Positions 29,710 to 33,991 are shown, numbered from the stretch's first letter. The stretch is DNA of 64,000 bases from Prosthecobacter debontii (GCA_945869675.1 CAMBPS010000001.1:23576-87575), one strand, 5' to 3'. Numbers and translations are program-made. The notes: generated from the letters alone by a model not told the origin.

Positions 29710-32172
29710 TCAACTCCAAGCTTTCTTCAATTCTCCACCTGCGCGTTCATGGGGTAGCCAAAGAATGCCAATGGCGTCGGGCTGGATTTTATTCTTGGTG
29801 GGAGTGAGTTTGACGGTTTCTAGAGCCAGAGTTGTCGGATCAAACTGGTCACGAATCTTTTGAGTCTCGTCTTCTAGGGTTTGGTTCAGATCAACCATCT
29901 CCTGCTGGAAGCGGACGAGTTCAGCTTCAGCCGCTGCGGCCTCCTGGCCTTCACGTATGACGCGTGAAGCGCTAGTCACGGTGTTGCCTTTTATCAGAGA
30001 ACTGACTGCACCCAGACCGCTCTTGCGCCCTAGGAATGCACTGAGAATGCTGCTTCCGATGTTGACTGCAGCAGAAAGTTTGGCGCTGTTAGCCTGTGCT
30101 TTTTGGGTGTCTACTTTGACTTGAACTTTAATTGTTTTGTTCTCGATGGATTTTAGAGCCTTGGTGGTTTTTTCACGCAATTCCTCGATGGCTTTGTCGC
30201 GCAGTTCACGGGCTGTTTGGGCGATGCGGGCCTTGAATTCATCCACCTTTTCACCGGGATTTGAATAGGCTTCCAGTGCGGGGCTATAGCTGACTGCCAG
30301 GCTGTAATTGGCATACACCCAGTCGGTGTAGTCTTTTTTGATGCTGGTGTAGGTGCTGGACTTCAAGGCAGCACTGGGGAGGTCCGTGAATTCGGCACCT
30401 TCGGCGGCATCGGACTGCCATTTGGAAAGGTCCACATCACGAGGGATTTCGACGAATTTGTCCCAAATGACCCGTTGGTTGCTAACATCGATTGAATTGA
30501 CCAAGGTGACACTGCTGCGCCCTGTGATCTTACGTTTGGCATCATCAAAATTGACGATGGCGTTGCGCAGAATGGCGGGAACGTAGCAGAGTGTGTCACC
30601 ACTGATTTCACTAGGCAGGAAATATTCAGCTGTTCCTTCAGGTAGTTTGGGTTTGATCGTATGGCGCTCTGCGGCAGTCGCTGCCGTGGCTCCTGGGGGC
30701 AGGAAGCCATCGTCTTCTCCACCAGAAGCAGCGGTTTTTTTGGCTGGGCGGATCGGATCCATCAAGCGCTGGATTTGATCTCTGGCGAGCGGACCGCTGA
30801 GGTAGCTCATGATCCAGCGAACATGAAAGATGGCGGGGCCGTCTTCATGCACGTTATTCATGAGGAAGACGCGATTGCCAAGGCCTGAGATGGCGACCTC
30901 CATTTGTTTGCGGTCAAACTTACCGCCACTGCCACTGACAGCGCCTTCGAGCCCGTCTAGGAGACGAGCTTTATCACGCTCGGTTTGCAGACGCCCGATC
31001 CACCAGGTCCCGATGTTAGCCAGCGCTTTGTAATCAAGGTCCACAGGGTTCTGCGTGGCGACGAGCATGCCGAGACCAAAGGCACGAGCCTGTTTGAGCA
31101 GGATCATCATCGGCTTCTTCGACGGAGGCATCGCTGTCGGTGGTAGATAGCCGTAGATTTCGTCCATGTAAAACATGGCACGAAGAGATGTGGTGCCCTG
31201 CTGGGTGCGCATCCACCCCAATAGCTGATTCAGCAAGAGCGACACAAAGAACATGCGCTCGCTATCATTGAGATGGGCGATGTTAAAGATGGTGATGCGG
31301 GGTTTACCCTCAGCCGTGTAATACATGCGCTGGATGTTCAGCGGCTCACCTTCAAGCCAGGAGGCGAAGCCTGGGGAAGCGATGAGATTATTCATCTTCA
31401 TTGCCAGAGCGATGCGCTTAGCCTCGGGCATGAAGGTGTCGATATCGACGACACCGACTTTCCGAATCGGCGGCTGTTGGATGTGACGGACGAGATTTTC
31501 TAGCGAGACGTTTTGGCCCTTTTTCCAGCAGTGAGAGATGATGTTGGAGAGAAGGATATGCTCGGGTGACTGAACAGGATCAGCCTCAATGTCCATAAGG
31601 CCGAGCATAGAGGAAACGGTGCTTTCGATCCGATCTCCGAGAGTTTCGGCATCGTCCATTACCTCTGTCGGTGGGCAATCGAGCGAGCTAAGTATGGAAA
31701 CCGGCAGACCTGCATTGCTGCCCGGCGTGTAGATGGCCATGTCTACCGTTTCACGCAGTTTTTTAATGCGATCAGCGCTTTGCCCCCAGTCGCCGAGCCC
31801 CTTTTTCCAAAGGTCTGACTGCTGAGTGGCGAATTCGTCCACACTGATTCCTTTGCGGCGGGCATCGTCAGTGTTGACCCAAGGTTTAAACTCCTCAGGA
31901 CTCAGATTGGGGAAGGTGAGCAGCGCATTGCCGATGTCACCCTTGGGATCGATAGCGATGAGTGGAATGCCATCCAGAGCAGCTTCTTCAAGCAAGGCAA
32001 GGCAAAGTCCTGTCTTGCCTGAACCTGTCATGCCGAGCACCACTCCATGTGTAACGAGATCCTTCGAGTCATACATCACCAAGTCTTCCTGGAGTTCTTT
32101 TGTCTCCAAGTCGTAACCGCGTCCGAGGTAAAAAGCCCCGAGCTTTTCATATTGGACTGGGGTAATGGTCAT
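29710..32172 (-). CDS. HerA/FtsK-like P-loop ATPase (DUF87/DUF853-like) with C-terminal coiled coil
   Basis: Walker A GMTGSGKT, AIDPKGD, Walker B FYMDEI, QARAFG...ATQNPVDLDYK; heptad-like C-terminal region. Confidence 0.8.
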   Translation of the reverse strand: MTITPVQYEKLGAFYLGRGYDLETKELQEDLVMYDSKDLVTHGVVLGMTGSGKTGLCLALLEEAALDGIPLIAIDPKGDIGNALLTFPNLSPEEFKPWVNTDDARRKGISVDEFATQQSDLWKKGLGDWGQSADRIKKLRETVDMAIYTPGSNAGLPVSILSSLDCPPTEVMDDAETLGDRIESTVSSMLGLMDIEADPVQSPEHILLSNIISHCWKKGQNVSLENLVRHIQQPPIRKVGVVDIDTFMPEAKRIALAMKMNNLIASPGFASWLEGEPLNIQRMYYTAEGKPRITIFNIAHLNDSERMFFVSLLLNQLLGWMRTQQGTTSLRAMFYMDEIYGYLPPTAMPPSKKPMMILLKQARAFGLGMLVATQNPVDLDYKALANIGTWWIGRLQTERDKARLLDGLEGAVSGSGGKFDRKQMEVAISGLGNRVFLMNNVHEDGPAIFHVRWIMSYLSGPLARDQIQRLMDPIRPAKKTAASGGEDDGFLPPGATAATAAERHTIKPKLPEGTAEYFLPSEISGDTLCYVPAILRNAIVNFDDAKRKITGRSSVTLVNSIDVSNQRVIWDKFVEIPRDVDLSKWQSDAAEGAEFTDLPSAALKSSTYTSIKKDYTDWVYANYSLAVSYSPALEAYSNPGEKVDEFKARIAQTARELRDKAIEELREKTTKALKSIENKTIKVQVKVDTQKAQANSAKLSAAVNIGSSILSAFLGRKSGLGAVSSLIKGNTVTSASRVIREGQEAAAAEAELVRFQQEMVDLNQTLEDETQKIRDQFDPTTLALETVKLTPTKNKIQPDAIGILWLPHERAGGELKKAWS

Positions 32173-32209: not shown

Positions 32210-32848
32210 TCACTTCAACTCCTTGATCCGAAGATTGCGGAACTTGTAAGTAGCACCTTTTTCGCCGTGGTGCTGGATAGCAATGGCGCCGCTGGCATCG
32301 GTGTTGTCTTCGATTTCCGTGGTGACCACACCGTTCACTTCGATCTTGAGCTTATTGCCCTTGCAGGTGATGCGGTAGGTATTCCAGTCATTGCGCTTGA
32401 AGGCGTCTCCAGCACGGGCACGAAATGCGGCTTCGCTTTCTTTATTGCCTTTGATCGGGCTGATGAACCACATGCGGCGGCCTTCATCATAGAGACCACC
32501 GGACCATTTGCGCTTGGCATCGCCATCGACTTCAGCTTGGTAGCCAAAGACTTTGTTTGGCTGAACGTGAGCCCGGAACATGAAGCCGCTGTTGGCTTGG
32601 CCTTCAGGGAGTAAGATGTCCCCCTCAAAGATGAAGTCGCTGTAAGTCTTTTCAGTGACGACGAAGAATTTTTTTTCACCTGTGAGATGCACTTCCCCAT
32701 TCACGACTTCGATCTTGCCCCAGTCATAGGCATTCTTCCAGCCGGTCATGGTCTTGCCATCAAAGAGCGGTGTGAAGCCATCATCAGCCGAAGAGGCTGG
32801 CAGGATGGAAAGAATAAACAGGATGGATAGGAGGTGATGGAGTTTCAT
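32210..32848 (-). CDS. DUF1080 (3-keto-disaccharide hydrolase-like) secreted protein
   Basis: Signal peptide from ATG 32848 (MKLHHLLSILF); GFTPLFDGKTMTGW, NSGFMFR, GYQAE, WNTYRI, IAIQHH. Confidence 0.88.
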   Translation of the reverse strand: MKLHHLLSILFILSILPASSADDGFTPLFDGKTMTGWKNAYDWGKIEVVNGEVHLTGEKKFFVVTEKTYSDFIFEGDILLPEGQANSGFMFRAHVQPNKVFGYQAEVDGDAKRKWSGGLYDEGRRMWFISPIKGNKESEAAFRARAGDAFKRNDWNTYRITCKGNKLKIEVNGVVTTEIEDNTDASGAIAIQHHGEKGATYKFRNLRIKELK

Positions 32849-32897: not shown

Positions 32898-33836
32898 CTA
32901 CAGTTCATCATCGGGGATCTCTGCGAAAACATCCCTAGAGGGTCTTGAGCGGCCCTCGCGGAGTGCCCGAGCGTCTTCGACGTCCTGAATTAAAAGTCGA
33001 TCACTTTGAATCAGGGCTGGGGGTAGTGGAGAAAGAAGTGCGTCGATGATCGTCGGCTCGTCACTGGCGTCTCGCATGATATTTCCAGGGTGCAGATCGC
33101 TCAAAACCCAAGCTTGGTCATGCTCCCAGAGTATCCACACGACACGGCGAAAACGTGCCCGGCAGGGAACGGCGCGAATGCGTTCTAAGGCTATGAGGCG
33201 ATCTTCGTCTAAATTTTTATACGGATAGGCCAAGGGCTGCTTCACGACCAGATAGTCACCTTGATCATCAATGCCGACGAGTTCTGTGGGATGGGCGCCA
33301 GCGTCGTGGAGGACGATGAGTTTTTCCATGGTCTCGATTAGCACTGCGTCGCGCACAGTCATTTCAAAGCCTTGATCGTCTGGGTATCGGTCAATTTCAA
33401 AAGTCTTTCCCAATCCACCACTGGAATGAAGTGGGAAGAGCTTATAAACTACCTGCCAGTCACCATCTGCAAAAGGACTGGCTTCAGCCCCAGTTTTCAG
33501 GGGCTGCATGTATTGAGAGATTAAATGATCGTCAGGATCTCTGCCTAGACCCAGGCCATCAAGCCGGATTAGGGGGACTCCCCACTCTCGGGACCTTTTG
33601 GCAACAAGGGCTGCCCAAACATCAGGCGTAAACGATTGCCGGGATGGAGCTTGTCGAGCTGCTTCCTGGATTCCTTTCGCTCGCTGTCGGTTAAGGGCAG
33701 AGCAAGCTGCGCGATCTCCTTCGGAGACGAGGGCCGTCGCGATGGCTGTCTCGCGCCCTGTCCTGAAGTCGAAGTTGGATTGAGTGCTGGTGTTTCCATT
33801 CACTAGAAGAGTCATCCAGTGGTGGCGAGCATCCAT
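32898..33836 (-). CDS. Stand-alone Ser/Thr kinase-like protein resembling the polyvalent-protein kinase domain
   Basis: GAEA...VYKLF (N-lobe Lys), LVVKQP hinge, SDLHPGNI catalytic loop, PTIID metal-binding Asp. Confidence 0.65.
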   Translation of the reverse strand: MDARHHWMTLLVNGNTSTQSNFDFRTGRETAIATALVSEGDRAACSALNRQRAKGIQEAARQAPSRQSFTPDVWAALVAKRSREWGVPLIRLDGLGLGRDPDDHLISQYMQPLKTGAEASPFADGDWQVVYKLFPLHSSGGLGKTFEIDRYPDDQGFEMTVRDAVLIETMEKLIVLHDAGAHPTELVGIDDQGDYLVVKQPLAYPYKNLDEDRLIALERIRAVPCRARFRRVVWILWEHDQAWVLSDLHPGNIMRDASDEPTIIDALLSPLPPALIQSDRLLIQDVEDARALREGRSRPSRDVFAEIPDDEL

Positions 33837-33991
33837 CAACGATCAACGGCAGATGCCAAAATCTTGTTCACAATCGATTGTGAAAAACCCCTTTTGATAG
33901 AGCTGTGGTCATTGGGCTTAGTGCCCTCACGCACAGACTTTTTAGTCTGATTTTGGGTGTTGGTTATGGCCAATTTTTTATTAGTAGCCAT
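33836..33991 (-). CDS. 51-aa basic, Ser/Thr-rich ORF translationally coupled to the kinase (absent from the ORF track)
   Basis: MATNKKLAITNTQNQTKKSVREGTKPNDHSSIKRGFSQSIVNKILASAVDR*; its TGA overlaps the kinase ATG (TGATG). Confidence 0.5.
   Translation of the reverse strand: MATNKKLAITNTQNQTKKSVREGTKPNDHSSIKRGFSQSIVNKILASAVDR
33867..33884. repeat. Perfect 18-bp palindrome
   Basis: TTCACAATCGATTGTGAA equals its own reverse complement. Confidence 0.6.

Follow-up and report, generated by a model that had tools for sequence, protein, structure and literature searches.

Probably one gene, not two: a stand-alone kinase akin to the PolyVal kinases and a chance upstream reading frame in Prosthecobacter debontii

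The PolyVal kinases were described by Iyer, Burroughs, Anand, de Souza & Aravind (2017; PMC5512222) as kinases that have lost their C-terminal subdomain and that carry a glutamate before strand 2 and a glutamine within the final N-lobe strand. They are known from polyvalent proteins of the Verrucomicrobia-Chlamydia group and of Bacteroidetes, and stand-alone forms have been reported for Bacteroidetes but not for Verrucomicrobia (PMC5512222). In the view of the same authors, what is left of the fold most resembles protein kinases, and they cite the phage T7 gp0.7-type kinases as a functional precedent (PMC5512222). Here, we describe a locus on the minus strand of a 64,000-nucleotide (nt) stretch of Prosthecobacter debontii DNA (GCA_945869675.1 CAMBPS010000001.1:23576-87575; hereafter the window), which a first-pass annotation had read as a two-gene cassette, that is, a toxin-antitoxin, kinase-substrate or defense module made of a small basic peptide and a polyvalent-type kinase. 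The source of the window is a freshwater metagenome-assembled genome of Verrucomicrobiaceae. We consider it likely that the locus holds one gene, not two: a stand-alone kinase in a sister family of the PolyVal kinases, next to a 51-codon open reading frame (ORF) that is fortuitous.

The kinase gene occupies positions 32898 to 33803 of the minus strand, on which all features of the locus described below are located. Its stop codon lies at 32900-32898, and it encodes a protein of 301 amino acids (aa) from a family-conserved GTG at 33803, from which kinase residue numbers are counted. The family comprises 174 close homologs, and 293 cluster representatives at E ≤ 0.001; all of the named ones are called "hypothetical". 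Codon-position entropy is 0.8-1.6 at position 3 as opposed to 0.0-0.8 at position 2, and variation is 3-10 times higher at position 3. Because the third codon position varies far more than the second, the kinase gene is real and under purifying selection.

The protein begins with an N-terminal domain of ~95 residues (33519..33803; DFRTGR...RAACSALNR...VPLI) made of two long helices and short strands, followed by a minimal kinase core without a C-lobe (residues ~96-285; 32949..33518). The core contains an ATP-site loop, G105-A-E107-A108 (33480..33491), whose invariant Glu precedes the VVYK strand, a feature described in PMC5512222; the invariant ATP-anchoring Lys, K121, of the VVYK strand itself (33441..33443); the invariant Q189 of a K-Q-P motif in the last N-lobe strand (33237..33239), which is a PolyVal-kinase signature; a catalytic loop, D236-L-H-P-G-N241 (33081..33098), with invariant D, H and N; and I252-I-D254 (33042..33050), which holds the metal-binding Asp equivalent to that of DFG and in which I253 and D254 are invariant and I252 nearly so. 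The residues that are invariant in 40 homologs are G105, A106, E107, A108, V119, Y120, K121, K188, Q189, P190, D236, L237, H238, N241, I253, D254, A255, L256 and the C-terminal L301. This last Leu closes an acidic tail, AEIPDDEL (32901..32924; family consensus FEDVxDDDL), which is found in stand-alone copies only and is absent or replaced in copies embedded in larger proteins. Thus, the Lys, D-x-H-x-x-N and IID motifs named in the first-pass annotation are present, and its call on the kinase type holds, but the conserved start gives a protein of 301 aa and not of 312.

Structural models place this protein close to the PolyVal kinases. The AF2 model of the full kinase is a single globule (pLDDT 87, pTM 0.85) in which two N-terminal helices are followed by a beta-rich N-lobe; the core modeled alone has a pLDDT of 91.5. 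An insert between the conserved His and Asp of the phosphotransfer site is another trait by which PolyVal kinases are judged; in the window protein, a distance of 15 residues separates H238 from D254, and one beta-hairpin lies in that interval. In both models, only two short helices follow the IID strand, and therefore the kinase is predicted to lack a C-lobe. A Foldseek search of viral structures (BFVD) ranks A0A8S5VTK9, a "PolyVal Serine/Threonine/Tyrosine Kinase", first (E 3.9e-5, probability 1.00) and an LPD-containing polyvalent protein second (E 5.8e-5, probability 1.00), with T7-like phage kinases next. Compared with the PDB, the whole model gives weak mixed matches, some of them kinases (CK2, PRPK, AceK), and the top matches of the core model are nearly all protein kinases, including NleH1 (probability 0.98) and CK1.

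The family unit, that is, the N-terminal domain plus the core, is itself found in polyvalent proteins of 1,793-3,865 aa, five of which measure 3,432-3,865 aa, where its partners are ddrB-ParB, LPD1, ART-PolyVal and InPase domains. In these proteins, as in the synthetase inserts described below, the N-terminal domain always accompanies the core. A 519-aa protein (P0259) consists of two domains only, the kinase unit fused to ART-PolyVal. In a 3615-aa protein (P0179), a PF18762 kinase at residues 2148-2273 is separate from the family unit at 2575-2869, and ART-PolyVal follows directly after the unit. Alignment of the family profile with the PF18762 segment of P0179 by hhalign (E 4.6e-4, probability 33%) brings GxE, V-x-K, xQP, SD...N-x-M and xD-x-L into register. 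The loss of the C-lobe, the Glu (E107, in GAEA), the Gln (Q189, in KQP) and residence in polyvalent proteins of Verrucomicrobia are all found in this family, so that the polyvalent-type assignment of the first-pass annotation is upheld. Because the PF18762 model misses the family and because the two domains are separate in P0179, we regard the family as a sister of the PolyVal kinases and not as PF18762 proper. Giant polyvalent carriers of the unit are P0179, P0163, P0186, P0261 and a 6073-codon frame on contig G376:C56. Short frames of 105-244 codons that match the N-terminal ~90 residues only were also seen (G003:C106:4514-4738, G412:C177, G406:C229, G394:C731); these are either free-standing paralogs of the N-terminal domain or decay products.

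Two other ideas about this coding region were tried and rejected. The first is dual coding by an ORF of 76-79 codons in the +1 frame (33569-33799), which is open and alike in 9 of 12 relatives. Since its second codon position is the most variable and its ATG derives from the conserved GTGAATGG, this ORF is a by-product of the kinase frame. In the window it runs for 76 codons (METPALN...LALPLTDSERK...HPGNRLRLMFGQPLLP) inside the N-terminal domain of the kinase, and kinase codons 31-75 show a mild dip in synonymous variation. The second idea paired a Ser/Thr-rich precursor of a ribosomally synthesized and post-translationally modified peptide with a LanL-like kinase, as in class III/IV lanthipeptide synthetases (LanKC/LanL). 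It was rejected because the NF038150 match, which covers the kinase core only, scores 14.5 bits against a cut-off of 650, because the 301 aa contain no lyase or cyclase domain, and because the peptide is not conserved.

With its full catalytic set (E107, K121, D236, N241 and D254) in a core of ~190 aa, the protein would act as an active, self-contained, ATP-dependent Ser/Thr(/Tyr) protein kinase, and its target would be a cellular or an invader protein. The ~95-aa N-terminal domain and the acidic ...DDDL tail would likely be targeting or auto-regulatory parts, and the mechanism that we propose from sequence and models would involve no antitoxin or partner gene.

In some relatives, a copy of the whole unit was also found inside the putative CP1/editing domain of valyl-tRNA synthetase (ValRS). 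The sole ValRS genes of genomes G014 and G017 have 1,291 and 1,404 codons, respectively (L031:5410-9264, with the insert at residues ~237-559; L032:5097-9290), and each carries a ~320-aa copy of the N-terminal domain and core between "...HF(R/K)VEV" and "TWLTIATTRPET". From E. coli ValRS, we take the insertion site to be the hairpin just before the threonine-rich editing motif. The ValRS of the window organism (contig C99) has a 6-residue loop at this position and no insert. Eleven further clusters of insert-bearing ValRS proteins (P0267-P0277) are 1,208-1,323 aa long, with inserts that are 43-99% identical, and GxEA, VxK, QP, D(L/M)HxxN and IMDAL are kept in nearly all of the inserts. Embedded copies occur in ~10 of 145 Verrucomicrobiaceae species genomes and group with the polyvalent-associated clade rather than the stand-alone one. 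A literature search found no paper on a kinase unit inside ValRS. We considered whether embedded and stand-alone copies complement one another: of the ten genomes with an embedded copy, three have an intact stand-alone copy, one has a copy with an internal stop and six have none, which is an unconvincing contrast, because a stand-alone copy is present in about half of the remaining genomes. A second variable region, at ValRS residue ~430-440, splits the matches in G001, G005, G011, G012, G016, G018 and G022, whose ValRS frames have 956-1,099 codons, which points to a further, unrelated insertion in other members of the genus.

As the insertion into ValRS in relatives hints, the protein might not be a protein kinase at all but an ATPase, or a small-molecule or RNA kinase, tied to translation in the manner of Bud32/RIO. 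PRPK/Bud32 is among the weak PDB matches, at least 12 lineages have a motif-intact copy within the editing domain of ValRS, and the GAEA loop presumably resembles the nucleotide loop of Bud32/RIO. Nevertheless, the structures nearest to it are those of protein kinases (PolyVal, T7-like phage kinases, NleH and CK1), the inserts in ValRS fall within the polyvalent-associated clade and not the stand-alone one, and the retained core has been argued to be closest to protein kinases (PMC5512222). We therefore regard this alternative as unlikely and favor a protein kinase. A bolder proposal is that the whole family is aimed at the translation apparatus, the ValRS-embedded copy being a built-in switch that shuts down the synthetase or translation and the stand-alone copy being a trans-acting form held in check by its N-terminal domain and tail in place of an antitoxin. 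HipA acts on GltX, HipT on TrpS and T7 gp0.7 on translation factors, and we put this proposal forward as distinctly unlikely at present.

When species loci are aligned, 58 of 59 begin the kinase frame with GTG (39 loci) or TTG (19 loci), and the equivalent codon of the window is the GTG at 33803. Most homologs are 301 aa long and begin with (M/V/L)-N-(G/E/D). An in-frame stop lies within 11 codons upstream in 29 of the 59 loci, and 41 of the 59 lack an alternative upstream start codon. The in-frame stretch 5' of the GTG in the window (33804..33836) is lineage-specific; it contains ATG codons at 33836 and 33815, the latter being the start picked by gene callers for the identical protein P0001, and the matching stretch in the closest relatives (loci L040 and L002) holds stop codons. 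The ATG at 33836 opens the 312-codon frame that ends at 32898, and it shares one base with the TGA of the 51-codon ORF (33838-33836). Both the ORF at 33991-33836 and its TGATG overlap with the 312-codon frame are thus in the sequence, as the first-pass annotation had stated. However, the conserved GTG lies 11 codons downstream of that ATG, which leaves the stop of the ORF 33 nt upstream of the family start. Because the family start is this GTG/TTG, the overlap is lineage-specific, and the claim of translational coupling is left with an overlap at a codon that is not the family start.

Approximately 70 nt 5' of the kinase gene lies a conserved block, TTCACAATCGATTGTGAACAAGATTTTGGCATCTGCCGTTGATC (33841..33884), which appears to be non-coding. 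An alignment anchored on the kinase start gives its order as TTCAC-N8-GTGAACAAG, then 16 nt, then TTGATC (33884-33841). The arms of the dyad, TTCAC-N8-GTGAA, are conserved and the 8-nt spacer between them is freely variable. The distance from the block to the start codon is 64, 65, 66, 68, 69, 71 or 74 nt; in close relatives it is 68, 69 or 71 nt, and the spacing is thus not tied to a three-nt register. Substitutions within the block are radical in every reading frame (M/A/V, R/W/L) and are not of the coding type. The block is confined to one sub-clade, whose members are relatives with at least 69% identity. Because the arms are kept, the spacing is free and the substitutions are radical, the block acts like a protein-binding DNA site or some other non-coding 5' element. 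We propose that the block, as a candidate operator or promoter element, probably regulates transcription of the kinase gene in the sub-clade. An Rfam search of the upstream region returned no family, and neither a sigma-54 consensus nor a verrucomicrobial LexA-box consensus, compared by eye, fits this region.

The block could instead be part of a short leader ORF. Such an ORF would start at the invariant GTG of GTGAACAAG (33871), run for 7-24 codons and regulate kinase translation by termination-reinitiation in the sub-clade. In many relatives its last codon is the TGA within GTGAATGG, the kinase start, and 10 of 20 distinct sub-clade sequences run 23-24 codons to the GTGA; in addition, GTGAACAAG is kept in nearly all sub-clade sequences and a few substitutions look conservative (L/M, V/I, A/S). 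By our own estimate, however, a 23-codon open frame is expected by chance in ~40% of cases, which the 10 of 20 fits, and the frame stops earlier at varying places in 8 of the 20 (after 11 codons in the window), and two are fused in frame. Radical replacements (M/A/V, R/W/L) occur inside a single close group. Moreover, the left half of the dyad lies outside the leader ORF and the spacer is freely variable, for which a protein-binding DNA site is the better fit. We judge a regulatory leader ORF to be quite improbable.

The remaining part of the upstream region is the 51-codon ATG ORF itself (33836..33991; MATNKK...ASAVDR*), which we judge to be fortuitous and to lie over non-coding DNA. Between the SDR gene upstream and the kinase gene lies a spacer of 239 nt with 45% G+C, and dinucleotide-preserving shuffles of it contain an ATG ORF of at least 51 codons in 12% of cases. 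Reading the sequence before the ATG, we saw no Shine-Dalgarno-like motif. Codons 1 to ~21 of the ORF are lineage-specific, codons ~22-39 are common to L040 only, and the last 11-12 codons are a translation of the conserved DNA block, so that the "C-terminal helix" of the peptide, SIVNKILASAVDR, is that block read as protein. A synteny breakpoint falls inside the ORF: the upstream neighbor differs even in the closest species, whereas DUF1080, the HerA-like ATPase, radical SAM and purU, on the downstream side, are found in them too. The frame would thus run from lineage-specific spacer DNA across the breakpoint and into the conserved 5' block.

Comparisons with other genomes agree with this description. 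A tblastn search with the peptide against 12 related loci, the check that the first-pass annotation had suggested, matched only the last 12-15 codons in only the two nearest genomes (L002 and L003), where the frame is closed a few codons upstream of the matching part. A search of 5.8 billion proteins returned a single match, the 58-aa P0266, which has residues ~22-51 in common with the peptide, an unrelated N-terminus and a different stop. Over the first 14 shared codons there are ~4 synonymous and 6 non-synonymous changes by hand count, a ratio close to the neutral expectation. In L038 and L039, which encode a kinase 100% identical to that of the window, a 1-nt insertion puts the ATG of the peptide out of frame, and gene callers did not predict the 51-codon ORF there. 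Stops interrupt the peptide frame in L002, L003, L043 and L048, and in L033-L037 it is fused to the kinase. More generally, the same DNA holds unrelated, stopped or kinase-fused frames in L041/L042 (kinase 96% identical), L043 (95%), L045/L046 (92%), L033 (87%), L035 (83%) and L003 (81%). On the sequence evidence, the 51-codon ORF is a fortuitous frame over non-coding DNA and not a gene, and it should not be annotated.

It follows that the weakest of the alternatives is the one from which the first-pass annotation began, namely a real 51-aa basic peptide that is translationally coupled to the kinase and that, within a toxin-antitoxin or anti-phage module, would be the antitoxin, substrate or regulator of the kinase: the ORF and its TGATG overlap are present, in L040 a gene finder predicts an ORF of 58 aa with a GTGA overlap at the kinase start, and kinase toxins with small partners are known (HipA/HipB, HipT/HipS), but the ORF is conserved neither within the species nor among relatives whose kinases are 81-96% identical, the peptides of the window and of L040 are alike only over conserved DNA and differ in their starts and stops, the coupling ATG is not the family start, most loci have no room for a partner and none is conserved, and there is no match in PADLOC or in Pfam, HipA families included, so that we hold this reading to be very improbable indeed. 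The median upstream gap is 78 nt, the upstream gene is divergent in 34 of 75 loci, and no neighbor is conserved beyond close kin across 80 species loci, the largest upstream cluster accounting for 3 of the 80. With no conserved upstream peptide, little room in most loci and no conserved partner, the two-gene cassette is unsupported. The lack of a conserved peptide upstream is also one of the outcomes that the first-pass annotation had itself named as refuting it.

Several observations weigh against the single-gene interpretation or parts of it. The block contains no sigma-70-like promoter, and its minimal dyad is not enriched in the genome (3 occurrences versus 3.3 expected), a count on which we also rejected the idea of a dyad regulon. 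An ORF that crosses this conserved stretch stays open in the window, in L040 and in L041/L042, and because of this a short, lineage-specific leader ORF may exist. For the kinase, PF18762 does not match the protein and neither does any other Pfam family at E ≤ 0.1, and none of the fold matches in the PDB reaches a significant E-value, all being ≥ 0.02. Searches of Pfam, NCBIfam, PHROGs and PADLOC gave no match for either ORF, save sub-threshold matches of the kinase core to LanL/LanKC, and sequence searches of the PDB gave no match.

The single kinase gene is set among neighbors of housekeeping type (SDR, YeiH, TyrRS, TGT, purU, radical SAM and DUF1080), as the first-pass annotation had noted, and no integrase or transposase was seen among them. 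The family has a match in 83 of 145 Verrucomicrobiaceae species genomes, and in 54 of the 93 that are of high quality; many of these matches are fragmentary or stop-containing remnants, and intact copies occur in about half of the species. Sampling the whole phylum gave matches in 23 of 301 genomes, which belong to two families only. Named hosts are Prosthecobacter, Brevifollis, Phragmitibacter, Luteolibacter and Haloferula. Within the genus, kinase copies fall into clades that are 37-44% identical to each other, and ValRS is 79-94% identical. Given that the gene is intact in approximately half of the species, decays frequently, changes its neighborhood and forms divergent clades within one genus, it behaves as an accessory gene of conflict-system origin with high turnover, not as a two-component module. 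That decay is frequent is indicated by the fragments and stop-bearing copies in many genomes; N-terminal fragments or copies with stops were seen in G364, G370, G376, G387, G004, G401, G377 and G354. The closest species-level relative, L002 (G014:C8:30055-30957), has an in-frame TAG at kinase codon 249 (RDAAD*PTIIDAL), and its genome, G014, also has a ValRS-embedded copy.

Two downstream genes deserve mention. The longest ORF of the adjacent DUF1080 (3-keto-disaccharide hydrolase) gene overlaps the end of the kinase gene at 32898-32932; its true start is likely the ATG at 32848 before a signal peptide (MKLHHLLSILFILSILPASSA), which is the choice of the gene caller on L038 and leaves a 50-nt gap. 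One gene downstream of the kinase, beside the radical-SAM and purU genes, lies a gene for an 820-aa HerA/FtsK-like ATPase (29710-32172, minus strand) that matches PADLOC mads_8 at E 3.6e-12 and HerA models down to E 1.7e-8. A link between this ATPase and the kinase was rejected, the arrangement being kept only in the nearest relatives.

These results remove a false lead, in that there is probably no new kinase-peptide module at this locus. They also point to a family of ~300 aa, unrecognized by Pfam, through which the PolyVal kinases without a C-lobe come to include chromosomal genes that stand alone in Verrucomicrobiales. The family is carried by cultured species, namely Brevifollis gellanilyticus, Prosthecobacter fluviatilis, Luteolibacter algae and Haloferula luteola. 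The part most worth following up is the kinase unit inside the editing domain of an essential ValRS.

Compared with described systems, the window kinase resembles the HipA/HipT toxins in one respect, since the aminoacyl-tRNA synthetase targets of those toxins echo the ValRS fusion in relatives of the window gene. Unlike HipA/HipT with HipB/HipS, it has no match to HipA families in Pfam or NCBIfam and no conserved partner, and its kinase architecture is a different one. PADLOC-DB, likewise, has no defense-system family that matches either the kinase or the peptide at E ≤ 1. Among PDB folds, the core is best matched by NleH1/NleH2 (4LRJ, 4LRK; probability 0.98, with a TM of 0.53 on the target), kinases of ~160 residues in which the C-lobe is reduced; however, the match has an E of 0.02 and 12% identity, and NleH is a type III effector of enteric bacteria with no contextual homology. 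The phage T7 gp0.7-type kinases are small Ser/Thr kinases of phage origin that need no partner to act on host proteins, and there are weak fold matches to kinases of Yersinia phage fPS-53 (E 1e-3) and Xylella phage Cota. They lack sequence similarity to the window gene, which is chromosomal and family-wide and not borne on a phage genome. The closest likeness is to the PolyVal kinases (PF18762). The window kinase differs from them in that it is missed by the PF18762 model (P0179 carrying both domains separately), in its obligatory ~95-aa N-terminal domain and acidic ...DDDL tail, and in being encoded by a stand-alone chromosomal gene and not within a multidomain polyvalent protein. What it has in common with them is the loss of the C-lobe with an intact catalytic set, the Glu and the Gln, a presence in polyvalent proteins of Verrucomicrobia, and the best Foldseek matches.

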